A DNA stretch of 64,000 nt from an uncultured Chloroflexia bacterium (GCA_963789905.1 CAWBMK010000007.1:72747-136746); one strand, 5' to 3'. Counted from the stretch's first letter, positions 20,458 through 39,977 are shown. Made by a program: numbers and translations. The notes: generated by a model from the letters alone, not told the origin.

Positions 20458-20638
20458 CGATCGACGCCGTCGCGACCGCCTGGTGGTCGCGCGACGGGCT
20501 CGATGGCGGACCCCCGATGGCGCCCGTCGCCGAGGGCGACATCGTCGCTCTCCTGTGGGCAGGCGGGTACCTCCGGGCGATGTCGTCACGCCATTGCCTC
20601 CGCGAGCCCGCTGGGTCCATCTTCCCGAAGCGCTGACG

Positions 20639-23139: not shown

Positions 23140-24255
23140 TCAGGGCCCGCGGCCGCCTTCGACGAACTGCCATCCGAAGCGCCCTTTGATGCACAGGTGA
23201 CCGTCCGTCACCGAGTGGTCCATCGGCGAGGTCACCTTGACGATCCGGCCGTCCTGGGCGTGGAGCTCGAGGTTGCAGCCGACCCCGCAATAGGGACAGA
23301 TCGTCGTGGTCTCGGTCTGCGCGCTCTCGTCCCACGTGCCCGCTGCCCGCATCTCGTGCTCACGACTGAACATGAGCGCGCCCGTCGGACAGACGCCGAT
23401 GCAATTGCCGCAGTAGACGCAGGCCGAGTCGGGCAGTGGGACGGCCTGCTCGGTCGAGATTCGGGCGTCGAAGCCGCGCCCGGCGACGGCGATCGCGAAC
23501 GTGTTCTGGGCGTCGACCCCGCAGGCCTCGACGCACTTGTAGCAGAGGATGCACTTCGAGTAGTCGCGGACGTAAAGCTCGTTGTCGACCTTGACAGGCT
23601 GGGCGACCGTCGCCGCGACATCGCCGGCTGTGCCGTGGTGCTGGCCGGTGACGCGGCCGTCGCGCTCGCCGGCAGCCGTGGGCTCAGAAGCCTCGCCGTA
23701 CCGCGAGGGGTCGGCTCCATATCGCTCCATCCAGGCCGCGATGGAGCCGTCCGGCTCGCGTGGTCCGGCGAGCGAGAGGTCGACGGATGAGCCGAGGAAT
23801 TCGAGAACGACCTTGCGAGAGAGCGCGACGCGATCCGACTCGGTCTGGATCTCCATCCCCGGCTCGACCTTGCGGGAACAGGCGGGCACCAGAACGCGCG
23901 AGCCGGTCACCTCGACGACGCAGACGCGACAGACGTTGACCGGGGTGAGGTTCTCGAGGTAGCAGAGCGTCGGCAGATCGCCGCCCGTCACACGGACCGC
24001 CTCGAGGATCGTCGAGCCCTCGGGTACGGAGACGGCCCGGCCGTCGATCGTGACCTCGACCATCGCGGCGTGGTCCGGATGAGGGGCGAATGGCGCAAGC
24101 GGTGTACGGGGCTGGCCGACGAACCAGACCGGCATCTCGTCCCACCCATCCCTGGGTGTCGGTACCCAGTTGCCCGGCACCGGGCCGGCATGCTCCGGCT
24201 GGTCCTCGGGTCCGAGGTGCTCCAGGTGCTTGCGGGGCTCGCTGTGCTCGCTCAT
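23140..24255 (-). CDS. Formate dehydrogenase alpha subunit, N-terminal Fe-S module only (NuoG-like 2Fe-2S + 4Fe-4S domains + MopB N-terminal 4Fe-4S motif)
   Basis: 2Fe-2S ferredoxin fold (TLCYLENLTPVNVCRVC), two 4Fe-4S ferredoxin motifs (CILCYKCVEAC, CVYCGNCIGVCP) and the MopB FS0 motif CPYCGVGCN...GHLCIKGRFGW. It then ends. The ATG at 24255 overlaps the stop of the upstream gene as ATGA. Confidence 0.8.
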   Translation of the reverse strand: MSEHSEPRKHLEHLGPEDQPEHAGPVPGNWVPTPRDGWDEMPVWFVGQPRTPLAPFAPHPDHAAMVEVTIDGRAVSVPEGSTILEAVRVTGGDLPTLCYLENLTPVNVCRVCVVEVTGSRVLVPACSRKVEPGMEIQTESDRVALSRKVVLEFLGSSVDLSLAGPREPDGSIAAWMERYGADPSRYGEASEPTAAGERDGRVTGQHHGTAGDVAATVAQPVKVDNELYVRDYSKCILCYKCVEACGVDAQNTFAIAVAGRGFDARISTEQAVPLPDSACVYCGNCIGVCPTGALMFSREHEMRAAGTWDESAQTETTTICPYCGVGCNLELHAQDGRIVKVTSPMDHSVTDGHLCIKGRFGWQFVEGGRGP

Positions 24256-26123
24256 GCCACGACCATGCCTTCGCGGACAGCCGATTCGATGGCCGCCGAT
24301 GCCGTCTGGCCCAGGCCGCAGATCGAGGCGTCGCGCATCGTCTGGCCGATCTCCGCGAGAAGGCGCATATCCGAAGCCCGGTCGCCGATGGGCAGGTCGG
24401 CCAGCAGCCGGGCCAGCAGCTCCTCCTGGCGGACCGTGCCGACCCGGCAGGGCACGCATTGGCCACACGATTCGTCGCGGAAGAACGCTGCGATCCGACG
24501 GAGTGCGTCGAGGATGTCGGCGCGCTCGTCATACACCAGGATCACGCCGGAGCCGAGGGACGCCCCGACGGCTCGCGTGCCCTCGAACGTCAGCGGCAGG
24601 TCGAGGTTGTCGGGGCCGACGAACGTTCCGGCCGCTCCGCCCAGGAGGACCGCCTGCAGCGCCCGGCCATTCGCGACGCCGCCGGCCATGGCGATGAGGT
24701 CGCCGAGGGTCGCCCCGAACGGGACCTCGAAGAGGCCCGGTCGAGCGACGTTGCCGGACAGGCAGAAGAGCTTGACCCCGCTCGATCCGGCCGTCCCGCG
24801 GCGCGCGTATGCCGCCCCACCCTCGCGCATGATCAGGGGCACGTTGACGAGCGTCTCGACGTTGTTGATGACCGTCGGTTTGCCGAAGAGGCCGTGAGTC
24901 ACCGGGAACGGCGGCTTGTTGCGGGGCTCACCGCGCCTGCCCTCGATCGAGTTGAAGAGCGCGGTTTCCTCGCCGCAGATGTAGGCGCCGGCGCCGCGCC
25001 GGATCTCGATGTCGAAGGCGAACCCTGCGCCCAGGACGTCCGCTCCGAGCAGTCCAGCGGTACGGCAGGCGTCGATTGCGGCCGCCATCGTAGCGGTCGC
25101 GGCCGGGTACTCCGCACGGATGTAGATGTAGCCGTGCTCCGACCCAGTGGCGAACGCGCCGATCGTCATTCCCTCGATGACGGCGAACGGGTCGCCCTCC
25201 ATGAGCAGGCGATCCTTGAACGTCCCGGGCTCCGACTCGTCGGCGTTGCAGACGAGGTAGTGCGGGGTGTCGGGCTGACCTGCCACCGCCTCCCACTTGC
25301 GACCTGTCGGAAAGGCCGCCCCGCCTCGCCCGACGAGGTGCGAGGTCGTGACCTCTGCGATCGTCGCCGCCGTGCCGAGCTCAATGGCCCGTTGGAGCCC
25401 GGCGTAGCCGCCATCTTGCCGGTAGGCGTCGAGGTCGGTCGGCCCGATGCGTCCGATGCGGCCGATGAGGCGTAGATCGGCCGCGGCCGCCGAGTCGACC
25501 TGCGGCACCGATGCACGCAGCTCGTCTCGCGTCGGGAGGGCGTCGCCTGGAACGAGCTCGAGGCGGCGGATGATGCCCGCCGCGTCGATCGGCCCGGCCA
25601 CCAGCTCAACGGCTTCCTCGCCGGCGATCGTGAACAGGGCGACCGGGGCACGCTCGCACATCCCGAGGCAGGGGCTGCGATGCCACGTCACGGCTCCTTC
25701 GTGGACCGGCTGGCCCTCTGGGCCGAGCGAACGCTCCAGCGCGGCCGCAGTCTCCTCGGCGCCGGCCAACCGACAGGCCAGATCGTCGCACACATGGGCC
25801 ACGGTCGGCGGCTGGGGAGTCGTCGAGAGGAGGGCGTAGAAGGTGGCCACGCCGTAGGCCTCGGCTGGCGGGACCGACAGCCGCTTGCAGATGTAGTTGA
25901 GGGCGGGCTGGCTGATATGGCCGAAGCGAGCCTGGATCGCGCGAAGGGCTGGCAGCAGCAGGTCGCGGCGCGCCCGTGCCGCGTGACCGCCGTAGGCGAC
26001 GTGCCCTTCCGTGCGCGCATCGCGCTGACCGCCCACCCAGCCACTCTCGGGCGGTCCGACGACGGCGTCGACGGCTGCCCGCTCGGCGGCCGAGGCGAGC
26101 GGCCCGATGACGTGGAGATCCAT
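24252..26123 (-). CDS. NAD(+)-dependent formate dehydrogenase beta/gamma fusion (NuoE-like 2Fe-2S domain fused to NuoF-like NADH/FMN/4Fe-4S subunit)
   Basis: N-terminal NuoE-like motifs (ALNYICKRLSVPPAEAYGVATFYALL...CDDLAC...CLGMCERAP). Then NuoF motifs (GRGGAAFPTGRKWE, FMN site, C-terminal CGQCVPCR 4Fe-4S). Confidence 0.85.
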   Translation of the reverse strand: MDLHVIGPLASAAERAAVDAVVGPPESGWVGGQRDARTEGHVAYGGHAARARRDLLLPALRAIQARFGHISQPALNYICKRLSVPPAEAYGVATFYALLSTTPQPPTVAHVCDDLACRLAGAEETAAALERSLGPEGQPVHEGAVTWHRSPCLGMCERAPVALFTIAGEEAVELVAGPIDAAGIIRRLELVPGDALPTRDELRASVPQVDSAAAADLRLIGRIGRIGPTDLDAYRQDGGYAGLQRAIELGTAATIAEVTTSHLVGRGGAAFPTGRKWEAVAGQPDTPHYLVCNADESEPGTFKDRLLMEGDPFAVIEGMTIGAFATGSEHGYIYIRAEYPAATATMAAAIDACRTAGLLGADVLGAGFAFDIEIRRGAGAYICGEETALFNSIEGRRGEPRNKPPFPVTHGLFGKPTVINNVETLVNVPLIMREGGAAYARRGTAGSSGVKLFCLSGNVARPGLFEVPFGATLGDLIAMAGGVANGRALQAVLLGGAAGTFVGPDNLDLPLTFEGTRAVGASLGSGVILVYDERADILDALRRIAAFFRDESCGQCVPCRVGTVRQEELLARLLADLPIGDRASDMRLLAEIGQTMRDASICGLGQTASAAIESAVREGMVVA

Positions 26124-26154: not shown

Positions 26155-27267
26155 TCAGATGAACTGGCTGAGGGCTCGCTGGAGGAGGAACAGGCCGATC
26201 GGCAGGACGATCGCCGACACGAGGGCTCCGAGGGTGCCCGGCCGCCACGGCAGTGTCGGGAGCCTGTCGACGAGGTCGCGCTCCATCACGAGGACGCCTA
26301 GCGCATCGTGCATCCCGGCCGCCGCCGTCATATCACCTCGGTCAACCGCCGCGTGGATCGCCGCGATCGTCGCCTCGACCCGCAGTCCCACCTCGCCCTG
26401 GAGTCGCCGCTTCTCAGCGATGATCCGCTTCTGCATTCCACGGAGCGGCAGAACGAATACGGCCATAGCGGCCACGATACCGCCGCCGAGGTACAAGAAG
26501 AAGAACACGGCTCCCAGGCTCGTCGACAGCAACCCGAGAGTCAGGAAGGTTGGAAGAATGAAGACGAGGGCGATAACGATGGCCGTCCTCGACGTCAGGA
26601 TCGAGAAGGCATACAGCGGTGCGGGCCGAAAGAGATCCACGCGGGTAGCTCGCGAGTGTGTCCGGCCCACCTCTCGAAGCTGACGGAACGAGTGGAGGAC
26701 GAGGACCAGGATGAGGCTTCCGAAAAAGACCTCGCTCACATACCTGAACAGCATGCCAAGCGGCGACAAACCGACGACCTGGGAACCGACCGGATCGGCG
26801 AGGTAGTAGATCGGCGTCGTAATAGCCGTGAAGAGGAGGAGGGCCGCGGCTGGGCGGGCTGGAGCAACGGTCAGCACGTAGCGAAGGCGCGCGACCTCCG
26901 CATCGGTCGCAGCGAGTACCGGCCTGAACGTGTCGAGGGCGGTCCCTGCGATATCCGCGAGATAGCCCATCAGCCAGAGTGTCAGGGGCAGGAAGACGGC
27001 CCAGAACGCTTGTCCAGCAAGATAGACCGGGTCGCTGTTGCTCTGGAGGCCGGACGGGCCCAGCAAGCTCAGAACCACCGAGATCGCCGCGATGGCGATG
27101 TAAGCGAGCCACGTGGGGCCGGGCAGCCGCTCGATCCAGTTGATGAGCAGGTTCACCCAGCTCGGCCCGTACGGCCGCTCGTCGCCCGAAAGATGCTGGC
27201 TCGTCGCGGTCGCTGCCGTGCTGGACCCGGTCGCGAAGTCGGTGGCCGATGAGGCCTCGGTCGCCAT
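26155..27267 (-). CDS. Polytopic integral membrane protein of unknown function, embedded in the formate dehydrogenase operon
   Basis: 370 aa with about 9-10 hydrophobic helices. GC content is visibly lower than in the flanking genes. Confidence 0.55.
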   Translation of the reverse strand: MATEASSATDFATGSSTAATATSQHLSGDERPYGPSWVNLLINWIERLPGPTWLAYIAIAAISVVLSLLGPSGLQSNSDPVYLAGQAFWAVFLPLTLWLMGYLADIAGTALDTFRPVLAATDAEVARLRYVLTVAPARPAAALLLFTAITTPIYYLADPVGSQVVGLSPLGMLFRYVSEVFFGSLILVLVLHSFRQLREVGRTHSRATRVDLFRPAPLYAFSILTSRTAIVIALVFILPTFLTLGLLSTSLGAVFFFLYLGGGIVAAMAVFVLPLRGMQKRIIAEKRRLQGEVGLRVEATIAAIHAAVDRGDMTAAAGMHDALGVLVMERDLVDRLPTLPWRPGTLGALVSAIVLPIGLFLLQRALSQFI

Positions 27268-27285: not shown

Positions 27286-29199
27286 TCAGGCGACAGGTGT
27301 CGAGAGCTTCTCGATGCGGATGGCGGTCGCCTTGAACTCGGCCGTTCCCGACTTCGGGTCGGTGGCGTCGATCGTCAGGAGGTTCGTCGCCACGTCGTCC
27401 TGGAAGTGCAGGGTCATGAATGTGAGACCTGGCCGCAGGGATTCATCGATCCTGATGGGGACATTCAGCTCGCCCCGGCGTGAGCGGACATGAACGACCT
27501 CCCCGTCGCTGAGGTCATACGTCAGCGCGTCCTCGGGGCTGATGTCGAGCGATTCGCCTCGCCGCAGCGGCGATGTGTAGCCGGCCGTCTGGACGCCGGT
27601 GTTGAAGGAGTCGAGTCGCCGGCCGGTGGTGAGGCGGATCGGGAACTCGTCGGTCAGCCGATCGACCGGCGGATCGTGTTCGACGGGCATGAACGGTGCC
27701 GGAGCGCCGACGCGCGGTTGTGCCCACAGCCGGGAGTGGATGTACAGCTCGCCCGGGTGGGTCTCGTCCCAGCACGGCCAATGGATGCCGCCGAGCTCGT
27801 CGAGGCGTCGGTAGCTCATCCCGGCGTGGACCGGGGAGAGCGATCGGACCTCGTCCCAGACCCTTTCTGCGACCGGCTCGCCCCAGTCGTGGCCCATCCG
27901 GCGGGCGACCTCGAACACGATCCAGAGGTCATCGCGTGCCTCGCCCGGCGGGTCGATCGCCTTGCGCACCCGCTGGACCCGTCGCTCGCTGCTGGTCACC
28001 GTCCCCTCGGTCTCGGCGAACGAGGCTGCCGACGGCAGGACGACATCGGCCAGCGCGGCCGTCTTGGTCAGGAACAGGTCCTGGACGACGAGGGCCTCGA
28101 GACCGCCAAGGAGCTCGATTGCCGTGGCCTGGTCCGCCTCCGACTGGACCGGGTTCTCGCCGACGCAGTAGATCGCCCGGACCTCGCCGGTCTGCATGCC
28201 GTGGAACATCGCCGATAACGAGCGACCCCGGCGCGGCGGGATCGTCACGCCCCAGGCCGCCTCGAATTTCGCTCGCGCGGCGTCGTTCTCGACGTGCTGG
28301 AAGCCGGGCAGCCGGTCTGGCAGGGCGCCCATGTCGCCGCCCCCCTGGACGTTGTTCTGGCCGCGCAGCGGCTGCAGACCGCTTCCGTAGCGGCCGACGT
28401 GACCGGTCAGCAGCGACAACGAGATCAGGGCCAGGACGTTGTCGACCGCGTTGTGATGCTCGGTGATGCCCAGGGTCCAGCAGAGCTGGGCGGACTTGGC
28501 CGTCGCATACGCGTGCGCCAACTGGCGGATCGCTTCAGCGGGCACGCCCGTCTCGCGCTCCGCGTACTCAAGGGTGTACTTCTCGACGCCCTGGCGGTAG
28601 AGGTCGAAGCCGATCGTCGCGTTGTCGATGAACGCCCGGTTCTCGAGGCCGGCGGCGATGATCTCGCGGCCCACCGCGTTGGCCAGGGCGATGTCCGAAC
28701 CCACGTCCAGGCCGAGCCACAGGTCGGCCCACTCCGCGCTTGCCGTCCGGCGCGGATCGACCGCATACAGGCGAGCCCCGTTGTGGATCCCCTTGAGGAC
28801 ATGGTGGAAGAAGATGGGGTGAGCTTCGCGAGCGTTGCTACCCCACAAGATGATGAGGTCGGTCTCCTCGACCTCCCGGTATGAGCTGGTCCCGCCGCCA
28901 GCCCCGAACACGGTCGCCAGACCGGCGACAGAGGGTGCGTGTCAGGTGCGGTTGCAGCTGTCGATGTTGTTGCTGCCGATGACCGCGCGGCCGAACTTCT
29001 GCGTCGCGAAGTTCAGCTCGTTGGTGGCCTTCGAGCAGCTGAAGAGCCCGAACGCTCCGGGTCCGTGCCGGTCCACGACGCTCGAGAAGAGCTCCGCGGT
29101 CCGGTCCAGGGCCTCGGCCCAGCTCGCCCGCCGGAGATCGCCGGTCTTGCCGCCGACTCTGACGAGCGGGTGGGTGAGTCGGGCATAGGCCTGTGCCAT
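27286..29199 (-). CDS. fdhA: Formate dehydrogenase alpha subunit, catalytic molybdopterin (MopB) portion; selenocysteine-containing (in-frame TGA at 28942-28944)
   Basis: Two ORF-track entries (28942..29670 and 27286..28911) are in the same frame, separated only by TGA. Reading through gives ...GSNNIDSCNRT-U-HAPSVAGLATVFGAGGG..., matching E. coli FdhF ...GTNNVDCCARV-U-HGPSVAGL. Start at MAQAYARLTHPLV (ATG 29197-29199, GAGGA RBS). Confidence 0.85.
28913..28929 (-). other. SECIS-like hairpin downstream of the Sec UGA
   Basis: mRNA GUCGCC-GGUCU-GGCGAC is a perfect 6-bp stem with a GGUC-containing apical loop, starting 12 nt after the UGA, as in E. coli fdhF. Confidence 0.5.
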
Positions 29200-29322
29200 G
29201 CTCGATCCTCGACTCGATGGCGATGTGTACGCCACGCTCCCGAGTGTATCTCCGGGTTGTGGCATACGATATTGGCCCGCACCCGCGCGCTTCGAGCACC
29301 AACGGAACCAGGAAGGTCGGAC

Positions 29323-29574
29323 ATGCCGCTCTACCTCGATACACATCACCACGTCGAGGGCCTGACAGCCGAGGCGGTCGCCGGTGCCCATGCCGCCGAT
29401 CTCGGAGTCCAGGGGAAATACGACGTGCGCTACCTGCGGTACTGGTTCGATGAGGCGACCGGCAAGGTCTTCTGCCTCGTCGAGGCGCCCTCCGCGGAAG
29501 CTGCCATCCAGGTCCATCGCGAGGCTCACGGCCTCCTGGCGGACGAGATCACCGAGGTCAGAGAGGGGATCTGA
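29323..29574 (+). CDS. DUF4242 (SCO4226-like) small protein
   Basis: 83 aa MPLYLDTHHHVEGLTAEAVAGAHAADL...RYLRYWFDEATGKVFCLVEAPSAEAA. ATG 29323 with a GGAAGG RBS. Divergent from fdhA. Confidence 0.6.
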   Translation: MPLYLDTHHHVEGLTAEAVAGAHAADLGVQGKYDVRYLRYWFDEATGKVFCLVEAPSAEAAIQVHREAHGLLADEITEVREGI

Positions 29575-32332
29575 CCTCCAGGTCGACCGCGGGCGCGAGA
29601 AGGGCGATCGCCTCATCGAGCCCGGTCGACAGTCCGCCCTCCCAGGCAACGCCGAATGCCGCCGCGCCAAGGCTCTCGGTGAGGTCGGCGACTAGCCGAT
29701 CGTGTTCGGCCCGCGCGCCGACCTGGCGGGTTGCGCCGATCTCGAGGCGAAGCGCCTCGGCCGCGCCGAGGAGTCGTGCAGCCAGTCGCGGGTCAGTGGC
29801 CGCCACCGTTATCGCCAGTCGCTCGAGCGCCCTGACCGAGCCGGGTTTGTCGCCCAGCGTGCGCCGCATCTCGAGGCCCTCGCGATGCAGGGCGATCGCC
29901 TGTGTCGTCTCGCCGCGACTTGCCTCCGCATCGGCCAGGAGCATGAGCATCCGAGCGACACCGCGGCCGTCACCGATCGACCTATAGAGCGTCAGCGCTC
30001 GGGTGAGGATCTCTTCAGCCGCCGCAGGATCGCCGCTCGCGTGGACTGTCGCCCCCTGTTGGCCAAGGGCGTGCGCCTCGCCCCAGATGTCGCCCTCAGC
30101 ACGGAAGATCTCGGCCGCCTCCTCGAACGACCGAAACGCGCCCTCGTGGTCGCCCCGTCCCTCGGCAACACTGGCGAGATTCATGAGCTGGAAGGCCACG
30201 CCACGCCAATCGGACACCGACCGGGCGAGAGCGAGACCTTCCTCGTACAGCGCGACGGCGCGTTCCGAGTCGCCTTGCTGGACGCACAGGCTCGCAAGAT
30301 TGCTGAGGGCGGACGCGATGGCCAGGGGATTGCCGATCGCGCGCTGGGTGTCGACGCAGCGCTCCAGATAACGCATCGCCCCCTGTGGGTCGCCCCGCAG
30401 CCCCGCGATGACGGCCGCTCCCGTCAGTGCCGTGGCCCGCACCTCGCTGGCATCGCCCGCGTCGGCTTCCACTGCCCTGGCAAGCCAGGTGCTCGCTTCG
30501 GCGAGGGCGCCCCGGATCTCCCAATAGCGCCACAGGCCGGCCGCCATTCGAACCAGCGCATCACCCGACGATGGGTCAGACGCGCTCCAGTCGAGCGCCG
30601 CCCCGAGATTGGCACGCTCGCGATCGAACAAAGCGATCCACTCGGTCGGATCTGAGCCCCGGAAGAAGTCCGGCTTCGCTCGTTCGACGAGCGCGACGTA
30701 CCAGTCGCGGTGCCGACTCTGCGCCTCGCCGGCCTCCTCGCTCTCGACGAGCTTCTCGCGGGCGTATTCCCGAACAGTCTCGAGGAGTCGGTATCGGCCG
30801 CCGCCGCTCTCGACGTCAAGGATGACGAGCGACTTGTCGACAAGCCTGGACAGCAGATCCAGCACCTCGTGCGACTCGATGTCGGCGCCTCGACAGACGG
30901 CCTCGGCAGCTTCGAGCGTGAACGAACCCGCGAAAACGGCAAGCCGGCGCAGGATCGCCTTCTCCTGATCCGTCAGCAGGTCGTGGCTCCAATCCATGGC
31001 GGCACGGAGCGTTTGCTGGCGCTGAAGCGCGATCCTGCTGCCTCCGGTCAGGAGGCGGAACCGGTCATCCAGCCGGGCTGCGATCTGGTCGACGGGCATC
31101 GAGCGCACCCGAGCCGCCGCAAGCTCGAGCGCCAACGGGATGCCATCGAGGCTGCGGCAGATGCGCACGACGGCCGACGCACTCCGTTGGTCGATGGTGA
31201 ACGTGGGGTCGACGACCCGGGCACGATCGGCGAACAGGGCGACGGCCTCGTAGGTGAGCAGATTTCCGCTTGGCTGCCGGTCTGCGGCGTCAGGCAGCGA
31301 TAGCGACGGGACCCGATAGATCGTCTCGCCTGGGATGCCGAACGCCTCGCGGCTGGTGGCGATGATGCGGAGGTTCGGGCAGCCGCGCAGGAGCGCGTCG
31401 GCCAGCCGGGCCGCGGCGTCGACGAGGTGCTCGCAGTCGTCGAGGACGAGGAGGGTCGTCCGCGGCCGAAGATGGCTGAGGATCGAATTGATCGGCGCCG
31501 CGCCCGGTGGAGTGGCGATGCCAACGCTCGTCGCTACAGCTTGGGGGACGAGGCTCGGGTCGGTGATCGTGCCGAGCTCGACGACCCACACGCCATCCTG
31601 ATAGCGGTCGAGAAGATCGGCCGCCACATGTAGCGCCAGCCTCGTCTTCCCGATACCACCGGCTCCGGTCAGGGTCAGCATGGGCGACCCGGCAAGGAGC
31701 TCCCGGACCTGCACGGTCTCGGCGTCCCGGCCGACGAACCTCGTCAGGAGGCGTGGCAGATTGTTGGGAAGGGTGTCGAGTGACCGAAGGACGGGGAAGT
31801 CTTCGCGAAGTCCGTCTGCGGCGACCTGGTAGAGATGCTCGGGCCTGGCCAGGTCCTTGAGCCTGTGCTCGCCGAGGTCGATGAGTCGGACGCCATCCGG
31901 CACCCCGTGCCTGATGAGCTCGGCCGTCGTCTGGGAGATCAGGATCTGGCCTCCGTGACCCGCGGCCGCGATGCGCGCCGCTCGGTGGACGTCGATGCCG
32001 ACGTAGCCCGCAGCCGCCGTCTGCGGCTCGCCGGTATGGATACCCATCCGAACCAGGATCCTGACGTCGTCGGGCCAGGTGTGGGTTGCAACCGAACGTT
32101 GGGCCTCGAGCGTCGCCTCGAGAGCCGAGCGGGCACTCGCGAACGAATAGAAGAACCCGTCGCCGGCGACGTCGATCTCGCTCCCCTCATGGGCCCGGAA
32201 TGCCTGGCGCAGCAGGCGATTGTGGTCGTCGACGACTGCAGGCCAGCGATCCTTGAGGGCCGCCACGAGGGTCGTCGAGCCCTCGATGTCCGTGAAGAGA
32301 AACGTCACCGTCCCTTGGGAGTGGTCGGTCAT
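29558..32332 (-). CDS. Adenylate/guanylate cyclase domain - P-loop NTPase (NB-ARC/AAA) - TPR multi-domain regulator
   Basis: N-terminal class III cyclase motifs (VTFLFTDIEGST...GDGFFYSF). Then a Walker A GAGGIGKTRLA and C-terminal TPR repeats. ATG at 32330-32332 overlaps the selD stop. Confidence 0.8.
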   Translation of the reverse strand: MTDHSQGTVTFLFTDIEGSTTLVAALKDRWPAVVDDHNRLLRQAFRAHEGSEIDVAGDGFFYSFASARSALEATLEAQRSVATHTWPDDVRILVRMGIHTGEPQTAAAGYVGIDVHRAARIAAAGHGGQILISQTTAELIRHGVPDGVRLIDLGEHRLKDLARPEHLYQVAADGLREDFPVLRSLDTLPNNLPRLLTRFVGRDAETVQVRELLAGSPMLTLTGAGGIGKTRLALHVAADLLDRYQDGVWVVELGTITDPSLVPQAVATSVGIATPPGAAPINSILSHLRPRTTLLVLDDCEHLVDAAARLADALLRGCPNLRIIATSREAFGIPGETIYRVPSLSLPDAADRQPSGNLLTYEAVALFADRARVVDPTFTIDQRSASAVVRICRSLDGIPLALELAAARVRSMPVDQIAARLDDRFRLLTGGSRIALQRQQTLRAAMDWSHDLLTDQEKAILRRLAVFAGSFTLEAAEAVCRGADIESHEVLDLLSRLVDKSLVILDVESGGGRYRLLETVREYAREKLVESEEAGEAQSRHRDWYVALVERAKPDFFRGSDPTEWIALFDRERANLGAALDWSASDPSSGDALVRMAAGLWRYWEIRGALAEASTWLARAVEADAGDASEVRATALTGAAVIAGLRGDPQGAMRYLERCVDTQRAIGNPLAIASALSNLASLCVQQGDSERAVALYEEGLALARSVSDWRGVAFQLMNLASVAEGRGDHEGAFRSFEEAAEIFRAEGDIWGEAHALGQQGATVHASGDPAAAEEILTRALTLYRSIGDGRGVARMLMLLADAEASRGETTQAIALHREGLEMRRTLGDKPGSVRALERLAITVAATDPRLAARLLGAAEALRLEIGATRQVGARAEHDRLVADLTESLGAAAFGVAWEGGLSTGLDEAIALLAPAVDLEVRSPL

Positions 32333-33423
32333 CTCGTTGCCGCGATCAGGGCGATCCCTCGGCCGGTCTCGACGTGGCCGATCCACCAATGAGAGACGCC
32401 GCGGAAGGTGAGGTCCTGTCCAACGGCGTCGGCCGCGTCCTCCGGGACGGCCGCAAGGAGGCCGCCCGAGGTCTGCGGGTCGTGGGCGAGGACGACGCGT
32501 TCGGGGGGGACGTCCCGGTCGATCGTCACCGCATCGGCCACGGACCGGCGGTTATGGGCGGCACCCCCGGTCTCGACGCCGGCCCGCGCGTTGTCGAGCG
32601 CGCCGGCGAGGGCTGGCAGGCCGTCCGCCTCGATGACGAAGCGCGTCCGATTTCCGGCGCCGGCGTCGGTCCGGATCATCTCGGCGGCGTGGCCGAGCAG
32701 CCCGAAGCCGGTGACGTCGGTCGCGGCCCGGACGCCATGGGCCACGAGCACCTCCGAGGCCGCCCGGTTGAGGCGACGCATGGACTCGATGGCCCCGTCG
32801 AGGTCCTCGTCGGAGGTTCGACCCTGGCGCCGTCCGCTCACGAGGACGCCCGTGCCCAGGGGTTTCGTGAGCAGCAGGCGGTCTCCCGGTCGCGCGCCAC
32901 CCTTGCGCAGCAGACGGTCCGGATGGCCGGCGCCGACGACCGCCAAACCGTATTTTGGCTCCGGATCGCGGATCGTATGGCCACCGGCCAGGGTGCCCCC
33001 AGCCTCGCGGACGACGGAGGCCGCGCCATCGAAGATCGCGGCCATGGTCTCCCGGGGCAGATCCTCGGGCAGGGCGGCGATCGACAACGCGAACAGGACG
33101 CGGCCGCCCATGGCAAATATGTCGCTAACGGCGTTAGCCGCGGCGATCTCACCAAACGTCCGAGGGTCGTCGACGAGCGGTGGGAAGAAGTCGAGCGTCC
33201 CGATGATCGCCAGGTCGTCCGAGATGCGGTAGGCGGCGCCGTCATCGGGCGGATCCAGCCCGGCGATCATGTTTCGATCGCGATTCTCCCTATTCGTCGC
33301 ACCGAGCCCGGCGAGGGCCTCCGCGAGCAGATCGGCACCGAGCTTGGCCGCACATCCGCCGCAGTCCGTCAGGTCGGTGAGGCGGATGTCGATCGGTGTT
33401 GCGGGAGGCTCGAGCCGTGTCAT
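32329..33423 (-). CDS. selD: Selenide, water dikinase (selenophosphate synthetase), Cys-type
   Basis: IRLTDLTDCGGCAAKLGADLL...AISDIFAMGG...MTDVTGFGLLGH...DPQTSGGLL aligns along its full length with E. coli SelD. There is a Cys (not Sec) at the active-site position. Confidence 0.9.
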   Translation of the reverse strand: MTRLEPPATPIDIRLTDLTDCGGCAAKLGADLLAEALAGLGATNRENRDRNMIAGLDPPDDGAAYRISDDLAIIGTLDFFPPLVDDPRTFGEIAAANAVSDIFAMGGRVLFALSIAALPEDLPRETMAAIFDGAASVVREAGGTLAGGHTIRDPEPKYGLAVVGAGHPDRLLRKGGARPGDRLLLTKPLGTGVLVSGRRQGRTSDEDLDGAIESMRRLNRAASEVLVAHGVRAATDVTGFGLLGHAAEMIRTDAGAGNRTRFVIEADGLPALAGALDNARAGVETGGAAHNRRSVADAVTIDRDVPPERVVLAHDPQTSGGLLAAVPEDAADAVGQDLTFRGVSHWWIGHVETGRGIALIAATR

Positions 33424-33462
33424 GAGCCGCGATGATAGTGCGCCCGGCTATCCTCGAGGGTC

Positions 33463-34284
33463 ATGAGCATCGGGCGCACTGCGACAGGCATCGTCTTCGA
33501 GGTCGCCGGCCCGCCCACCCTCGAGGTCGCGCCCGTCGTTCTCCTCCATGCCGGCGTCGCCGATCGACGGATGTGGGACGTCGTGTGGGGCGATCTGACG
33601 ATGGATCGGCCGATCCTTCGGCTCGACCTCCGGGGTTTTGGTGAGTCGATAGCGAAGCCGGTGGGCCTGCTCCTCCATCACGCCGACGTGCTGGCGACGA
33701 TGGATTCCCTCGACATCCAACACGCTCACGTCGTGGGAGCGTCGATGGGAGCGGGCGTCGCGGTCGAGCTGGCGCTGGCGGCTCCAGACCGGGTCGTGTC
33801 TCTGCTGCTCGTCGGCCCGGGTGGCTCGCTCATCGAGCATCCGTCCGAATGGCTCAGTGCGGCCTGGCGGGCCGAGGTCGATGCCCTCGACGTGGGTGAC
33901 ACCGATGCCGCCGTGGAGGTCAACCTGCGGGCCTGGGTCGATGGGCCGGCGCGCGAGGCTCGCGAGGTCGACCCCGACGTCAGGGCATTCGTCGGCGAGA
34001 TGCAACGGCGCATCTTCGAGGTCACCGCGGACTGGGATGACGTCGAGGAAGACGAGCTCGATCCGGCGGCCGTCGACCGTCTCGCCGACATCGCCGCGCC
34101 CACGCTCGTCCTCGTAGGCGACGGCGACGTCGATACGATCCTCGAAGTCGCGGAGCGGGCGGCCGAGGAGATCCCCAATGTCCGCCTGGTGCGCTGGCCG
34201 GTCGTCGCCCACATGGCGTCGATGGAGCGCGCCGAGGAGTTCGTGAGCCTCGCCCGGGACTGGTTCGCGGCCAACGACAGCTGA
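33463..34284 (+). CDS. Alpha/beta hydrolase fold protein
   Basis: VVLLHAGVADRRMWD...GASMGAG nucleophile elbow. 273 aa. Confidence 0.7.
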   Translation: MSIGRTATGIVFEVAGPPTLEVAPVVLLHAGVADRRMWDVVWGDLTMDRPILRLDLRGFGESIAKPVGLLLHHADVLATMDSLDIQHAHVVGASMGAGVAVELALAAPDRVVSLLLVGPGGSLIEHPSEWLSAAWRAEVDALDVGDTDAAVEVNLRAWVDGPAREAREVDPDVRAFVGEMQRRIFEVTADWDDVEEDELDPAAVDRLADIAAPTLVLVGDGDVDTILEVAERAAEEIPNVRLVRWPVVAHMASMERAEEFVSLARDWFAANDS

Positions 34285-34317
34285 GGGCCGCAAAGCCCCG
34301 GCGATACCATCGCCGGC

Positions 34318-34414
34318 GGGAGCGGAGGGGTCCCGGTGGGTCCCCCGGTCTTCAAAACCGGTGACGCCGCGCTCGGCGTGGCGTGGTGGGTTCGACTCCC
34401 ATGCGCTCCCGCCA
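34318..34414 (+). tRNA. selC: tRNA-Sec (anticodon UCA)
   Basis: 97 nt with an acceptor stem GGGAGCG/CGCUCCC. The D arm is a 6-bp stem GGGUCC/GGGUCC (two G-U pairs) with a 4-nt loop CGGU, the tRNA-Sec hallmark. Anticodon arm CCGGU-CUUCAAA-ACCGG with UCA at 34352-34354. Long variable arm ACGCCG-CGCU-CGGCGU. T arm GUGGG-UUCGACU-CCCAU. Discriminator G and encoded CCA. Confidence 0.75.
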
Positions 34415-34512
34415 CGCGTCCCCTTGCGATCGAAGCACGGACGCAGGGTGACGCCGTCTCTATCGAGGGCTAGGCCCGACTACCCGCGACGCGGCCGGTC
34501 GGGGACGGCTGC

Positions 34513-34541
34513 TATAGTAGTCACCTAGGTAGTCACTGGAG
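34513..34541 (+). promoter_or_regulatory. Putative promoter/operator of the antitoxin-toxin operon
   Basis: TATAGT (-10-like) immediately followed by the direct repeat TAGTCACC-TAGG-TAGTCACT, then a GGAG RBS and ATG 34542. Confidence 0.35.
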
Positions 34542-34784
34542 ATGGCCGTGGCAGAGATCGGTATCAAGGAGCTCAAGGCCTTCGCTTCAGCGGTGATCGA
34601 GGACGTCGAGGGCGGCACCGCCTACGTCGTGACGAAGCGAGGACGCCCGGCGGCGGTACTTCTTCCGATCGACGAGGCTGAGGATCTCGTCCTCGCCAAC
34701 GCCGACGCGTACATCCGGATTCGCCGGCAAGGCCGGGCAGCCTACGCCAAGCGCCGGACGATCCCCCTGAGTGAGCTCGGCTGA
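34542..34784 (+). CDS. Type II antitoxin, Phd/YefM family
   Basis: 80 aa MAVAEIGIKELKAFASAVIEDVEGGTAYVVTKRGRPAAVLLPIDEAE, the Phd/YefM fold signature. Confidence 0.75.
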   Translation: MAVAEIGIKELKAFASAVIEDVEGGTAYVVTKRGRPAAVLLPIDEAEDLVLANADAYIRIRRQGRAAYAKRRTIPLSELG

Positions 34785-35091: not shown

Positions 35092-36486
35092 GTGCGGTGT
35101 AACGTCCGCGAGATGGTCAGCGAGTCATCCCCGCGGCCCCCGGGCGTCGAGCGGTTGCTGAAGGCCGTGCGTCCGCTCGCCGGTCAGCGGGACGCCGACA
35201 TCCTCGTTCAGGCCACCCGGGCCGTCGTCGCGGACGAGCGCGATCGGCTTGCGCGGGGCGACGCACCCCGCCCGGTTGACGAACTCGCTGAGGCCGTTGT
35301 TGGTCGCCTTGACGCGGCGATGTCCGACGGATGGACGCCGATAATCAACGCTACCGGTGTGATCCTTCACACCAACCTGGGCCGGGCACCGTGGCCGGAC
35401 GCCGCCGTCGATGCCGCCCGGGCAGCGTCGGAGAATCTGTTCCTTGAGATGGACCGATCGTCGGGCCGGCGCGGGCCCCGATTCCGGGCTGCCGAGGAGC
35501 ACCTGATCGCCCTGACCGGGGCCGAGGATGCCCTCGTCACGAACAACAACGCGGCGGCAGTCGTGCTCGCCTGTCACCTTGCCGGTCGGCGTGGGATCGC
35601 CGTGGCCCGAGGCGAGCTCATCGAGATCGGCGGAGGAGTCCGGATCCCCGAGGTCGTTCGCCGCTCCGGTGCACGTCTCGTCGAGGTCGGCACGACCAAC
35701 AAGACCCGTGTGTCCGATTTCGAGGAGGTCCTCGCGGACGGTCGAGCTGCCGTCATCCTCCGGGTCCACGCCTCGAATTTCCGGATGAGTGGCTTCGTCG
35801 AAAGCCCCGACACGGCGGCGCTCGCCGCCATCGCGGCAGACCATGCCGCGATCGTCATCGACGACCTTGGCTCGGGTGCCCTGCTCGACACCGCGGCCTT
35901 CGGCCTGCCCCACGAACCGACGCCCATGGAACGGCTCCTGGCCGGGGCCGATCTCGTCACGTTCTCGGGCGACAAGCTCATCGGCGGGCCGCAGGCGGGC
36001 TTCATCGTCGGTCGGCGGGACCTCATCGCCCGGATCCGCAAGGACCCGCTGTCTCGGGCGATGCGACCGGACAAGGTGACGCTCGCCGCAGTCGCGGCCA
36101 CCCTGGCGATCTATGTCGCCGGAACGGCGACCCGGGAGATTCCAGTCTGGCGGATGATCGCCCAGTCGAGCGACGCGATCCGCGTCCGCGCGGAGTCGCT
36201 CTGTCGACGCCTCACGAAGCTCGGCCTTCCTGCCCTCCCGGTCCTTGTCGAGTCGACGATCGGCGGAGGCGCACTTCCTGAAGCGGTGCTTCCGTCGTGG
36301 GCGGTGGCTCTCTCGGACCCAAGCCCGGACCATCTGCTCGCGCGTCTCCGTGAGGGGATACCGGCCATCGTGGCGCGCATCGAGGCCGGCGCCGTCGTGC
36401 TCGACATGCGCACCGTCGACGAGCGGTGGGACGCCGAAGGTTCGCTGGCGGGTGCGCTGGTCCGCGCGCTGGGACGCGCTGGGTGA
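35092..36486 (+). CDS. selA: L-seryl-tRNA(Sec) selenium transferase
   Basis: VTNNNAAAVVLA...GELIEIGGGVRIPEV...FSGDKLIGGPQAGFIVGRRDLIARI aligns with E. coli SelA, including the PLP-Lys region (FSGDKL). Confidence 0.9.
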   Translation: MRCNVREMVSESSPRPPGVERLLKAVRPLAGQRDADILVQATRAVVADERDRLARGDAPRPVDELAEAVVGRLDAAMSDGWTPIINATGVILHTNLGRAPWPDAAVDAARAASENLFLEMDRSSGRRGPRFRAAEEHLIALTGAEDALVTNNNAAAVVLACHLAGRRGIAVARGELIEIGGGVRIPEVVRRSGARLVEVGTTNKTRVSDFEEVLADGRAAVILRVHASNFRMSGFVESPDTAALAAIAADHAAIVIDDLGSGALLDTAAFGLPHEPTPMERLLAGADLVTFSGDKLIGGPQAGFIVGRRDLIARIRKDPLSRAMRPDKVTLAAVAATLAIYVAGTATREIPVWRMIAQSSDAIRVRAESLCRRLTKLGLPALPVLVESTIGGGALPEAVLPSWAVALSDPSPDHLLARLREGIPAIVARIEAGAVVLDMRTVDERWDAEGSLAGALVRALGRAG

Positions 36487-38315
36487 CGGTCGTCATCGGG
36501 ACGGCCGGGCACATCGATCACGGCAAGACGACCCTGCTCCGGGCGCTCACCGGGATCGACGCCGATCGGCTCCCGGAGGAGAGGGCGCGGGGCATGACGA
36601 TCGATGTCGGTTATGCCCACATGACCCTCCCAGATGGCGACGTCCTCGACTTCGTCGACGTCCCAGGGCATGACCGGCTCATCGGAAACATGCTCGTCGG
36701 CGCCGCTGAGGTCGACGCCGCCCTGCTCGTGGTCGCGGCCGATGATGGGCCGCGGGCGCAGACGCATGAGCATCTCCGCCTCATCGATGCACTCGGCATC
36801 GACCACGGCATCGTCGTCATCACGAAGTCGGACCTCACCGGTCCCGGCGATCCGAGGACGATGTCGACCGAGCAGGCCGTCCGTGAGATCGTGGCCGGGA
36901 CAGGCCTGGCTCATTCACCCGTCATCGCCGTCTCTGCGTCGACTGGCAGTGGTCTCGACGAGTTGCGGACGGCACTTATCGATCTGCGCGATGCAGTCCG
37001 GCCCGAAGTCACCGCTCGAGAGGGCCCGGCGAGACTGGCCATCGATCGCATCTTCACGATCCGCGGCCACGGTGCGGTGGTGACCGGATCGCTACGCGGC
37101 GGCGCGTTCGAGACAGGCCAGGTCGTGCGGATCGAGCCCGGGCACAGGCGGGCACGAATCCGCGAGATCCAGAGCCGAAATGAGCCGACGAACCGGGCGA
37201 CCGGGGGTCGAACGGCGTTGAACCTTACGGGGGTCGATGCCGACCACTTGCATCGAGGCATGGTGATCGTCCCAGCGGACGACCTTCGCCTGGCCGTCAG
37301 CGATCGCCTGCTCGTGGTCCTCCGCTCACCTGCCCGGCGATCAACGGGCGCCTGGCGACTCCATCTCGGGACGGCCGAGGTCGGCGCCGAGCTCGGTCGT
37401 GGCCAGCGGGAGCACGCCGAGCTTGCGACCGGCGCCACGACGACGCTCCTGCGCCTCGATCGACCGGTCGCGATGGTGCTGGGCGATCGATTCGCCCTCC
37501 GGTCCAGCAGCGACACGACGGCCATCGGCGGCCGTGTCATCGATCCCGACCCGCCGCGTGGGCCGTCCCGCCGACGCGTCGACACGGATCGGCTCGCAGC
37601 GCTCGCGAACGCCGGGACCTGGGACGAACGCGACGCCGCCCGACTCGACCTGCATGGCTCGCTCGTCGCGGTCGCTGGGTCGGTCAGGCTGGCCCCGGAC
37701 GTCGAAGCCGGGATCGATGCGGCCGCCATCGCGGCAGTCCGCGACCATCACGTCAACGAGCCCGACTCGGCCGGACTCTCCGTCGCCGATATCCGGCCCC
37801 TGCTCGCCAGAGCGCTGCGTCGCCGGGTGACGATCGATGCCCGTGCGGCAGGCGCGGCGATCGAGGCGCGCCTTGGCGGTCTCGTCGCGACAGGGCGGCT
37901 GGCCCGGGACGGCGACCGCCTTCGCGACCCATCGCGCCCAGCCGGCACGCCGGCCGTCGTCCTCGCGGCCATGGATCGGCTGGAGACCCGGTTGGCGGTC
38001 CATTCCCCGCCGCCGCTCGCCGAGGCCGCGCGTGAGGCTGGCTGTCCGTCGGACGGTGTCAGGGCCCTTGAGAATGCCGGCCGCATCGTCCGACTCGAGC
38101 CGGATCTCGCCTATGCGTCATCGACATTCCGGGAGCTCGAAGCCCTGGCAGTGTCTATGGCCCGGGCGGGTCCGCTCACGCCGGCGGCGTACCGCGACGC
38201 CACGGACACCTCGCGACGCTACGTCATGGCCCTCCTCGAGGAGTTCGATCGACGGGGCGTGCTCCGGAGGACGGATGCCGGTCGCGTGCCGGGTCCGCGG
38301 GCCGCGGCGACGTGA
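36483..38315 (+). CDS. selB: Selenocysteine-specific translation elongation factor
   Basis: GTG start (GTGA overlap with the selA stop). VIGTAGHIDHGKTTLLRALTGIDADRLPEERARGMTIDVGYA...DVPGHDRL is a near-identical motif order to E. coli SelB. The C-terminal winged-helix region is present. Confidence 0.9.
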   Translation: MTVVIGTAGHIDHGKTTLLRALTGIDADRLPEERARGMTIDVGYAHMTLPDGDVLDFVDVPGHDRLIGNMLVGAAEVDAALLVVAADDGPRAQTHEHLRLIDALGIDHGIVVITKSDLTGPGDPRTMSTEQAVREIVAGTGLAHSPVIAVSASTGSGLDELRTALIDLRDAVRPEVTAREGPARLAIDRIFTIRGHGAVVTGSLRGGAFETGQVVRIEPGHRRARIREIQSRNEPTNRATGGRTALNLTGVDADHLHRGMVIVPADDLRLAVSDRLLVVLRSPARRSTGAWRLHLGTAEVGAELGRGQREHAELATGATTTLLRLDRPVAMVLGDRFALRSSSDTTAIGGRVIDPDPPRGPSRRRVDTDRLAALANAGTWDERDAARLDLHGSLVAVAGSVRLAPDVEAGIDAAAIAAVRDHHVNEPDSAGLSVADIRPLLARALRRRVTIDARAAGAAIEARLGGLVATGRLARDGDRLRDPSRPAGTPAVVLAAMDRLETRLAVHSPPPLAEAAREAGCPSDGVRALENAGRIVRLEPDLAYASSTFRELEALAVSMARAGPLTPAAYRDATDTSRRYVMALLEEFDRRGVLRRTDAGRVPGPRAAAT

Positions 38316-38884
38316 CGGTGTCCGCCATCGTCCTGGCGGGTGGTCGATCGTCGCGGTTCGGTCGCGACAAGCTTGCCGAGCCGCTCGATGGCCGACCGCT
38401 GCTTGCCCATGCGGTCGGGGTCGTCCAGGCGATCGCCGACGACGTCGTCGTCGTTCTCGCGCCGGACGCACCCGAGCCGAGCCTGGCGGGCGTTCGCTTC
38501 GCTCGCGATCCTGAGCCATTCGGCGGCCCGCTCGTCGGCCTCCTCGCCGGCCTCGAGGTGGTGACCGAGGAGACCGTCCTCGTCGTCGCCGGGGATATGC
38601 CTTCTCTCGACCCGGGCGTGTTGCGGCTGGTCATCGAGTGCCTCGACGGTGTCCAGGCGAGCGCGCTTCTCGACGGCGAGACCATCCGCCCACTCCCGGC
38701 GGCATTCCTGCGCTCTGCCGCACGAGCGGCGGGGTTGCGACTCCGCGATACCGGCGAGCGCAGCCTGCGCGCCCTCTTTGGCGAGATTGTGGTCCGGACG
38801 ATCCCCGACACGGCATGGCGTGCCCTCGACCCGACAGCCGTCACGCTGCGTGACATCGATCGTCCGTCCGATCTTCCGGCCTAG
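38312..38884 (+). CDS. mobA: Molybdenum cofactor guanylyltransferase
   Basis: GTG start overlapping the selB stop. AIVLAGGRSSRFGRDKL and VVAGDMP motifs. Confidence 0.8.
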   Translation: MTVSAIVLAGGRSSRFGRDKLAEPLDGRPLLAHAVGVVQAIADDVVVVLAPDAPEPSLAGVRFARDPEPFGGPLVGLLAGLEVVTEETVLVVAGDMPSLDPGVLRLVIECLDGVQASALLDGETIRPLPAAFLRSAARAAGLRLRDTGERSLRALFGEIVVRTIPDTAWRALDPTAVTLRDIDRPSDLPA

Positions 38885-38894
38885 GATAGGGACG

Positions 38895-39977
38895 ATGGAT
38901 CCGCAGATTCGGGCGATGTTCAGGCCGGCGGAGGGCACCGCCTATCTCGATTCGGCGACCTATGGCCTCCCTCCTGAGGCCACGACTCGGGCGATGCGGG
39001 CTGCGGTCGATGCCTGGCAGGCGGGCACCGCCGACTGGGTGTCCGACTGGGATCGGCCGGCAGAGGCGGCTCGCGAATCGTTCGCCCGGATCGTCGGCGT
39101 AGCGCCCGGCGCTGTGGCATTCATTCCGTCCGTGTCGGTCGGCGTGGGCATCGTCGCTTCGACCCTCGGACCTGGCGATGACGTCGTCGTACCGACCGAT
39201 GAGTTCCGCTCCGTCCTGTTCCCGCTGCTCGTCGCCCGCGAGCGAGGCGCCCATATCCGCGAGGTGCCGCTCGAGTCCATCGCCGAGGAGATCCGCCCGG
39301 GTACGACATTGGTCGCCGCGACGGTGGTCCAGATGCAATCCGGCCGCGTCGTCGACGTCGAGGCGATCGTCGCGCGAGCCAACGCCGTAGGCGCCCGGGT
39401 CCTTCTCGATGCGACCCACGCCATCCCGTTCGTCCCGCTCCAGGAGGTGGCCGCCCGCGCGGACTATCTCGTCGCGGCGGCCTACAAGCATCTCCTGTGC
39501 CCCCGCGGTGTGGCCTTCATGACCGTCCGACCGGACCGCTTGCTGGAGCTGCCGGCGCACAACGCGAACTGGCGCACCTCGGAGCGGCCGTTTGACACCT
39601 TCTTCGGTGGCCCCCTGGCGCTGCCGGAGACCGCGTCGCGGCTCGATGTGTCGCTGGCCTGGATCCCCTGGATCGCGGCGGTCGAATCGTTGCGGTTGAT
39701 CGCCGATTGGTCGGCATCCGGCGCGCTCGACGAGCCGGTCGTGCTGGCGCGGGCGATGGCCGAGGAGCTCGGCCTGAGGTGGGGCGGAGCGAGCCTCGTC
39801 TGTGCGCCGGTCGCCGACGGAGAGGCCGTCAGGCGCGCGCTCCGGGATGTCGGTGTCAAGGCCGCCGTTCGCGGCACCGCGATCCGCCTCTCGACCCACG
39901 TCTACAACGATCGAGCCGATATCGATCGCGCGGTCGCCGCCCTGGCGCCGTTCGTCGGTGCGCCGGAATTCGCATGA
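38895..39977 (+). CDS. Class V aminotransferase-fold PLP enzyme (cysteine desulfurase / selenocysteine lyase-like)
   Basis: 360 aa with a PLP-Lys context AAYKHLLCPRGVAFM. Start at MDPQIRAMF (ATG 38895). Confidence 0.65.
   Translation: MDPQIRAMFRPAEGTAYLDSATYGLPPEATTRAMRAAVDAWQAGTADWVSDWDRPAEAARESFARIVGVAPGAVAFIPSVSVGVGIVASTLGPGDDVVVPTDEFRSVLFPLLVARERGAHIREVPLESIAEEIRPGTTLVAATVVQMQSGRVVDVEAIVARANAVGARVLLDATHAIPFVPLQEVAARADYLVAAAYKHLLCPRGVAFMTVRPDRLLELPAHNANWRTSERPFDTFFGGPLALPETASRLDVSLAWIPWIAAVESLRLIADWSASGALDEPVVLARAMAEELGLRWGGASLVCAPVADGEAVRRALRDVGVKAAVRGTAIRLSTHVYNDRADIDRAVAALAPFVGAPEFA

Follow-up and report, generated by a model that had tools for sequence, protein, structure and literature searches.

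Does the overlap of a gene for selenophosphate synthesis with a gene for a signalling protein mean that the two functions are linked? The question is raised by a 64,000-nucleotide stretch of DNA from an uncultured Chloroflexia bacterium (GCA_963789905.1, CAWBMK010000007.1:72747-136746; this whole stretch is called the window below), in which selD, the gene for selenide, water dikinase, overlaps a gene for a 924-aa protein with a class III cyclase domain. The original prediction, made from the sequence alone, took the overlap as a sign of co-transcription and coupled translation, and as a link between selenophosphate synthesis and a cyclic-nucleotide signalling protein that lies directly upstream of an operon for a selenocysteine (Sec)-containing formate dehydrogenase (FDH). 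If true, such a regulatory link would have been undescribed. We find that the physical part of this proposal stands (the genes overlap, with no separate Shine-Dalgarno sequence for the second one), and that the functional part does not, the adjacency being confined to one clade. In relatives of the window the cyclase gene belongs to a two-gene module, together with a convergent gene for a small SCO4226-like protein; this module was probably inserted recently between selD and fdhA, the gene for the FDH catalytic subunit, and the selenium link is for this reason probably incidental. The sequence comparisons made here thus do not support the idea that selenophosphate synthesis and cyclic-nucleotide signalling are functionally tied. 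What the comparison points to instead is an ordinary recent change of gene order, in a genome where sensor genes of this kind are numerous.

The overlap itself was read directly. The minus strand at the junction reads ...GCAACGAGATGACCGAC..., where the selD TGA (32331..32329) and the cyclase ATG (32332..32330) share an ATGA. We take ATG 32332 as the likely start of the cyclase gene, because the N-terminus that it gives, MxxxxxGTVTxLFTDIEGST, is common to 34 homologues from other gene contexts; TTG 32389 was considered as an alternative start and ruled out, as the N-termini of the homologues fit ATG 32332. No Shine-Dalgarno sequence lies at a useful distance upstream of this ATG, the sole purine-rich stretch (GAG) abutting it, and cyclase homologues in other gene contexts mostly lack one too. 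Given the 4-bp overlap and the missing Shine-Dalgarno sequence, co-transcription is the simplest reading: selD and the cyclase gene are likely co-transcribed in this genome, and it is plausible that the cyclase open reading frame (ORF) is translated by ribosomes finishing selD. A promoter and terminator consensus scan of 28900..34600 picked up neither a promoter-like site nor any signal at the junctions, the consensus being uninformative for high-GC Chloroflexota (the G+C content of the window is 68.7%). By Rfam there is no riboswitch or leader near selD or fdhA, tRNA-Sec being the only match.

The selD/cyclase pair has the same geometry as ordinary ATGA-overlapping operon pairs, in which the lack of a Shine-Dalgarno sequence at a useful distance is expected for termination-reinitiation, and it has no feature that would distinguish it from them. 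Indeed, 5 of the 28 same-strand neighbouring ORF pairs in the window permit a 4-bp stop/start overlap on a rough ORF map, including selA/selB and the NuoEF-like and NuoG-like FDH subunits, and on another contig a cyclase homologue has the identical 4-bp overlap with an unrelated molybdenum oxidoreductase gene. The overlap of selD with the cyclase gene is, therefore, nothing unusual for this window.

There is little doubt about the upstream partner. SelD matches the full-length equivalog TIGR00476 with 341.8 bits (E = 3.6e-102; cut-off 125) and contains the Pfam domains AIRS and AIRS_C. Its translation reads ...LTDCGGCAAKLG..., with the N-terminal motif CGGCAAK, a glycine-rich loop with Cys and Lys. 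The roles of the catalytic Cys (or Sec) and of the Lys of this loop are established for SelD.

The original prediction had proposed to check whether the selD-cyclase adjacency is conserved in related genomes. Seen from the cyclase gene, selD lies upstream only in four contigs of one narrow clade (the window and three others, with cyclase identity of at least 71%). Short metagenome contigs carry the three closest cyclase homologues (82, 76 and 71% identity), all with one gene order: selD, cyclase gene, convergent SCO4226-like gene, Sec-FDH. The overlap is kept in two of the three (locus L002 and the contig of JGI sample 3300043331); in L001, the closest relative, selD ends 220 bp before the cyclase ATG in place of the overlap. 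This 220-bp spacer (L001 67..286) contains three units of ~27 nt, TGGGTC...GACCCA, that pair as inverted repeats, and it looks like a small repetitive palindromic element.

Outside this clade the cyclase gene has other upstream neighbours. Six homologues at 51-57% identity are on long contigs, none with selD and all with the convergent SCO4226-like gene; the genes upstream of the cyclase gene there are succinate dehydrogenase and RNase H (in two of them), Lhr helicase, PadR, OsmC and a molybdenum oxidoreductase. A family-alignment scan of metagenome contigs gave 80 wider-family loci at 36-53% identity; selD was found at none of them, and two have a SCO4226-like gene, in other geometry. Altogether, selD is absent from all 86 other cyclase-family loci. 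The family is large (at least 7,999 proteins at E <= 1e-20), with its best matches named Candidatus Limnocylindrales or Chloroflexota, and its members adjoin unrelated genes or form tandem arrays. Such arrays of distant members occur in L125 (four in a row), L106, L110, L123 and L140, showing that local duplication is frequent in the family.

The view from selD is the same. A survey with one genome per species and up to 10 kb on each side returned 80 selD loci; no relative of the cyclase domain, the TPR region or the nucleotide-binding oligomerisation module lies within this distance in any of them. The check proposed thus came out negative on both sides (0 of 80 selD loci, 0 of 86 cyclase loci). 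The original prediction had named, as a result that would speak against it, an adjacency unique to this genome with paralogues of the regulator scattered; this is largely what we see, with the adjacency in one clade and the family elsewhere beside unrelated genes or in tandem.

The window comes from a high-GC Chloroflexota genome of the Limnocylindria type, and the nearest genomes of the selD survey show what the place between selD and fdhA looks like without the module. All five (L003-L007) are Chloroflexota, one of them named Candidatus Limnocylindrales, and their SelD and FDH proteins are 66-72% and 70-71% identical to those of the window. In each, selD and the FDH catalytic gene are on one strand, the NuoEF-like subunit gene comes next, and the cyclase/SCO4226-like module is absent. 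The selD-fdhA spacer is 61 bp with a Shine-Dalgarno sequence in L003 and ~224 bp in L006; it holds a Cys/Met pyridoxal phosphate (PLP) enzyme gene in L004, a membrane histidine kinase gene in L005, and a PAS-GGDEF gene with a remnant of an L005-type kinase in L007 (46% identity between L005 kinase and L007 remnant, E = 2e-38). In L007 the PAS-GGDEF ORF and the HATPase_c remnant lie in one frame (10626..13634) with a single stop between them (13197..13199), an arrangement that may have arisen by decay of a fusion or reflect a sequencing error. The spacer is variable, with signalling genes over-represented in a very small sample. The simplest history, as judged from these gene orders, would have selD-fdhA as the older arrangement and the cyclase/SCO4226-like pair as one of several lineage-specific insertions in a variable spacer.

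What stays beside the cyclase gene is the SCO4226-like gene rather than selD. This gene, missed earlier, lies on the plus strand between the cyclase gene and the Sec-FDH operon; contrary to the earlier view, the operon does not follow the cyclase gene directly. It is convergent with the cyclase gene in all ten contexts (the window, the three contigs at 71-82% and the six contexts at 51-57% cyclase identity; overall range 51-100%), and in seven of the ten the two genes overlap at their 3′ ends by exactly 17 bp. The small protein is also far better conserved than its partner: it is 77-87% identical across the best 120 matches, against about 50% for the cyclase protein. We found no fusion of a SCO4226-like domain to a cyclase among these best 120 homologues, all of which are stand-alone proteins of 82-125 aa, nearly all of them 83.

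The assignment of the 83-aa protein to PF14026 (DUF4242), the Pfam family of SCO4226, is clear (84.6 bits vs 28.5, E = 5.3e-24; match to PDB 4oi3 at E = 2e-14). SCO4226 of Streptomyces coelicolor is a dimeric protein of 82 residues with a ferredoxin-like fold that binds nickel weakly, with Asp43/Ser46/His76 as its Ni-1 site (PMC4186839). The window protein, however, scores below the cut-off of the NCBIfam equivalog NF033706 (78.2 vs 125), and the Ni-1 site is mostly changed, to Asp43/Thr46/Thr77, so that Asp43 alone is kept.

Genes of this small family are found beside other sensors as well. An Anaerolineae genome (GCA_046328505.1; L170/L171) has two tandem copies of a homologue that is 82% identical, and each copy converges on an XRE-HTH/AAA_16/TPR STAND gene with a product of ~995 aa. 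A relationship of this Anaerolineae STAND protein to the nucleotide-binding module of the window protein was considered and rejected: BLASTP finds no similarity at E < 1e-3, and the Anaerolineae protein is a member of the AAA_16 family. On plasmid pNOCA01 of Nocardioides sp. JS614 (L172) a DUF4242 gene, itself followed by TusA and DsrE genes, is divergent from a BTAD regulator gene, and the DUF4242 genes of the Haloferax and Agrobacterium plasmids have no STAND neighbour. SCO4226-like genes thus pair with STAND sensors repeatedly, but not throughout the family, the plasmid contexts of DUF4242 genes being mixed.

The domain assignment made for the 924-aa protein was borne out by PF00211 (Guanylate_cyc; 38.2 bits vs a gathering score of 21.9), AAA_16 and NACHT matches to the P-loop NTPase, and TPR_12 (88.4 bits). 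A database protein 100% identical to it (P0001) carries PF00211, PF13191, PF25872 (HTH_77) and TPR families. The paralogue of the ATPase-TPR part that had been placed at 1..2248 proved to match at the TPR level only (ORF 2..2248; 29% identity over 115 TPR residues, E = 0.005, BLASTP), and is an AAA_16-type protein from a different STAND family.

The nucleotide-binding module and the TPR region resemble those of AfsR/SARP-type and MalT-type STAND proteins. The AfsR nucleotide-binding domain structure 8k60 matches residues 189-635 (E = 1.7e-8) and the NCBIfam AfsR model matches at E = 1.1e-23. The Walker A motif GAGGIGKT (31643..31669; K229) and the Walker B motif LLVLDD (D298) each have their key residue invariant in 34 of 34 homologues, and with the winged helix (PF25872 on the identical P0001) and the C-terminal TPR region they make up the set of features of AfsR/MalT-like STAND proteins. 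The effector of those proteins is a DNA-binding SARP/BTAD or LuxR domain, whereas the window protein has a cyclase domain. No GerE or other DNA-binding or helix-turn-helix family was among the Pfam matches of the 924-aa protein at E <= 0.001, and the cyclase is its only recognizable output, because no LuxR/GerE DNA-binding domain was detected.

The best solved-structure matches of the cyclase domain are Ma1120 of Mycobacterium avium (4wp3; E about 2.1e-20 to 2.8e-19) and Rv1900c/LipJ (1ybt; E = 5.7e-16). The metal-binding residues D15 (in FTDIEGST) and D58 (in AGDG) are each invariant in 34 of 34 homologues, as are Arg120 and His116, the latter at the position of the canonical transition-state Asn. 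Catalysis by a nucleotidyl cyclase is plausible, given that neither the metal-binding Asp pair nor the catalytic Arg varies. Ma1120 likewise lacks the canonical Asn and keeps the Arg, with Ala where the window family has the invariant His116; as Ma1120 is active with Ala164 at this position (PMC4215837), the loss of the Asn is no proof of inactivity.

The choice of substrate is less clear. The substrate-selecting positions Asp54 and Gly109 align with Lys101 and Asp157 of Ma1120, which are its ATP pair (PMC4215837), and are D or E in 31 of 34 and G in 30 of 34 homologues, respectively. They correspond to none of the canonical pairs (Lys/Asp for ATP; Glu/Cys or Glu/Gly for GTP). The nearest is Glu/Gly, found in the guanylate cyclase Cya2 (cited in PMC4215837), from which the window pair differs by Asp in place of Glu. 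The nucleotide therefore remains uncertain, as the pair is Asp/Gly and not Lys/Asp; possibly it is GTP.

A similar combination is found in the Rv0386-type proteins of Mycobacterium tuberculosis, which, like the window protein, have an N-terminal class III cyclase with non-canonical substrate residues, a P-loop STAND module and TPR. Their domain order is cyclase, ATPase, TPR, LuxR helix-turn-helix. The window protein differs by the lack of a detectable C-terminal LuxR/GerE domain, by its Asp/Gly substrate pair and by its pairing with a SCO4226-like gene. Rv0386 has been reported to have cyclase activity, with an alternative mode of substrate binding (PMC3466318). As for possible readers of a cyclic nucleotide, there is no Crp-type or other cyclic-nucleotide-binding protein among those window proteins that were scanned; a Crp-type cyclic-nucleotide-binding regulator adjoins the cyclase/SCO4226-like module in one other context.

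The features of the locus are collected in Table 1.

Table 1. Features around selD and the cyclase gene, in positions of the window
Feature	Position	Strand	Evidence or remark
selD, selenide, water dikinase, 364 aa	32329..33423	-	TIGR00476, AIRS, AIRS_C
ATGA stop/start overlap of selD and cyclase gene, 4 bp	32329..32332	-	read from sequence
Signalling protein, 924 aa (class III cyclase-homology domain, STAND ATPase, TPR)	29558..32332	-	Pfam, NCBIfam, PDB
Cyclase-homology domain, residues 5-156	31865..32320	-	PF00211; Ma1120 alignment
STAND nucleotide-binding oligomerisation module, residues ~198-600	30533..31741	-	AAA_16, NACHT matches
C-terminal TPR sensor region, residues ~601-924	29561..30532	-	TPR_12 and other TPR families
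Antisense 3′-end overlap of cyclase gene and SCO4226-like gene, 17 bp	29558..29574	.	coordinates
SCO4226-like (DUF4242) protein, 83 aa	29323..29574	+	PF14026; PDB 4oi3
Divergent spacer between SCO4226-like gene and fdhA, 123 bp	29200..29322	.	presumed site of the fdhA promoter
fdhA, FDH catalytic subunit, selenocysteine UGA in frame at 28944..28942	27286..29199	-	TIGR01591
tRNA-Sec	34316..34414	+	ARAGORN; Rfam RF01852, 74.4 bits
selA and selB	35092..38315	+	PF03841, E = 1.6e-116; GTP_EFTU, SelB-wing_3, Beta-barrel_SelB

The fdhA gene starts at ATG 29199, and a GGA-rich, Shine-Dalgarno-like stretch precedes the ATG of both this gene and the SCO4226-like gene. TIGR01591 matches the fdhA product at E = 3.5e-19 before the UGA and at E = 5.4e-161 after it. 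The FDH ORF stops at the same position, ...NNIDSCNRT, in L003-L007; in L001 and L002 the FDH gene is called in pieces. The FDH is of a split type, encoded by ORFs 27286..29199, 24252..26123 and 23140..24468, all on the minus strand. The catalytic subunit opens directly with the molybdopterin domain and has no N-terminal Fe4S4 domain; the missing segment (TIGR01591 positions 1-49) sits at the C-terminus of a NuoG-like iron-sulfur protein, whose gene comes after that for a NuoE/NuoF fusion. Separate catalytic, NuoEF-like and NuoG-like genes recur in L003-L007, with L004 ending before the NuoG-like gene. Two further well-formed ORFs on the minus strand, in or beside the operon, 26155..27267 (370 aa) and 21716..23035 (439 aa), have no Pfam or NCBIfam match; for the 370-aa ORF no match was reported in selD loci L003-L082, and the 439-aa ORF was not searched for there.

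Among the other neighbours, selA and selB have a possible 4-bp overlap, GTGA, at their junction. selB is followed by a class V aminotransferase gene (cysteine desulfurase-like or selenocysteine lyase-like; 38649..39977, plus strand), and on the far side of the FDH operon there is an FdhD gene (20336..21487, plus strand); both fit a neighbourhood for selenium use and FDH maturation. On the other side of selD, an alpha/beta hydrolase gene (33424..34284, plus strand) is divergent from it, with 39 bp between the predicted start codons. At 12 selD loci of Dehalococcoidia (for example L020 and L022), too, selD has a weak homologue of this hydrolase (23-32% identity) encoded upstream of it on the other strand, and the divergent arrangement may be inherited synteny within Dehalococcoidia, or chance.

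Several points weigh against a recent insertion with no bearing on selenium. The selD-cyclase order is kept in all four contigs of the clade, and the exact overlap in three of them, so that some selection for co-expression is possible. In other lineages, too, the place between selD and fdhA holds signalling genes (histidine kinase, PAS-GGDEF), and local regulators could be favoured at this place. Whether the module was inserted here or lost elsewhere is judged from the distribution of the genes and not from a rooted tree, and the three related contigs, short ones of 4-6 kb, possibly come from very close relatives. The original idea, taken to its full extent, would make the cyclase-STAND-TPR protein a dedicated regulator of selenium use, coupled to SelD and controlling the sel genes or Sec-FDH via a cyclic nucleotide. 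The ATGA overlap, kept in two related contigs, agrees with this, as does the location of the gene inside a complete sel/fdh cluster (tRNA-Sec, selA, selB, selD, fdhA, fdhD), and the Crp-type regulator beside the module in one context indicates that readers of the signal exist in these organisms. We nevertheless consider such a regulator unlikely: the adjacency is absent at 80 of 80 other selD loci and 86 of 86 other cyclase-family loci, the overlap is lost in the closest relative, an opposite-strand gene stands between the cyclase gene and fdhA, and the window proteins scanned include no cyclic-nucleotide-binding protein. Nor is the overlap telling, when 4-bp overlaps are common in the window and a homologue has one with an unrelated upstream gene.

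A different explanation would shift the weight from the cyclase to the site, the selD-fdhA spacer being a preferred place for lineage-specific regulators, recruited independently because local control of Sec-FDH is useful. Where the slot is occupied, three of the four cases are signalling genes, and the homology of the L005 kinase and the L007 remnant (46%, E = 2e-38) suggests that the kinase was held through speciation. The pattern was, however, spotted after the fact in only seven independent loci, and signalling genes and cyclase-STAND paralogues, some of them in tandem arrays, abound in these genomes. Two genomes have no gene in the slot, a third has a metabolic enzyme there, and the reduction of the L007 kinase to a C-terminal HATPase_c remnant argues against strong selection. 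We therefore think that there is little chance of this being so. The same doubt attaches to a bolder version, in which the spacer would wire lineage-specific sensors into selenoprotein metabolism: the STAND cyclase would be translated only with selD, the SCO4226-like gene would share its divergent promoter region with Sec-FDH, and a cyclic nucleotide would tie the activation of selenium to FDH, with other lineages using a histidine kinase or PAS-GGDEF protein for the purpose. Finally, the layout of effector, P-loop oligomerisation module and repeat sensor resembles that of defence STAND proteins, and the family is large, fast-diverging and paralogous, with tandem arrays; the protein might then be an anti-phage (Avs-like) STAND with the cyclase as effector and the small gene as accessory, and its position next to selD would be irrelevant. 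This is very improbable, as PADLOC finds no defence system, its matches being only to a generic TPR model (E = 3.8e-13) and, weakly, to PDC-S39, with nothing for the small protein, and as the gene contexts are housekeeping genes rather than defence islands. The small partner is highly conserved, unlike typical defence accessories, and the composition profile gives the cyclase/SCO4226-like module a G+C content equal to that of its flanks; this lack of a GC anomaly leaves no sign of a foreign origin for the module.

Recent insertion of the two-gene module, which we prefer, would have proceeded from an ancestral order of selD followed by fdhA on the same strand. The module would have landed between them in the lineage of the window, leaving the cyclase ATG overlapping the selD stop codon. 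The cyclase gene would then most likely be transcribed from the selD promoter, and its ORF probably translated by ribosomes coming straight from termination on selD. fdhA, cut off from selD by the opposite-strand gene, would be read from the 123-bp spacer that it shares with the SCO4226-like gene. To judge by its domain order and conserved motifs, the protein most likely acts in the manner of other STAND switches, though there is no indication that selenium is what it signals about. Its TPR region would take up a signal, possibly in the form of the SCO4226-like protein or its cargo; binding would cause the P-loop module to oligomerise, and oligomerisation would pair the N-terminal cyclase domains into the dimers that class III cyclases need, so that the cyclic nucleotide is made.

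Thus, the association that relatives preserve is the one with the SCO4226-like gene: a very conserved SCO4226-like protein invariably accompanies this subfamily of cyclase-STAND-TPR proteins. In the literature found, no link between the SCO4226-like family and STAND cyclases has been described. The pairing offers a hint at what these abundant, uncharacterized sensors detect.

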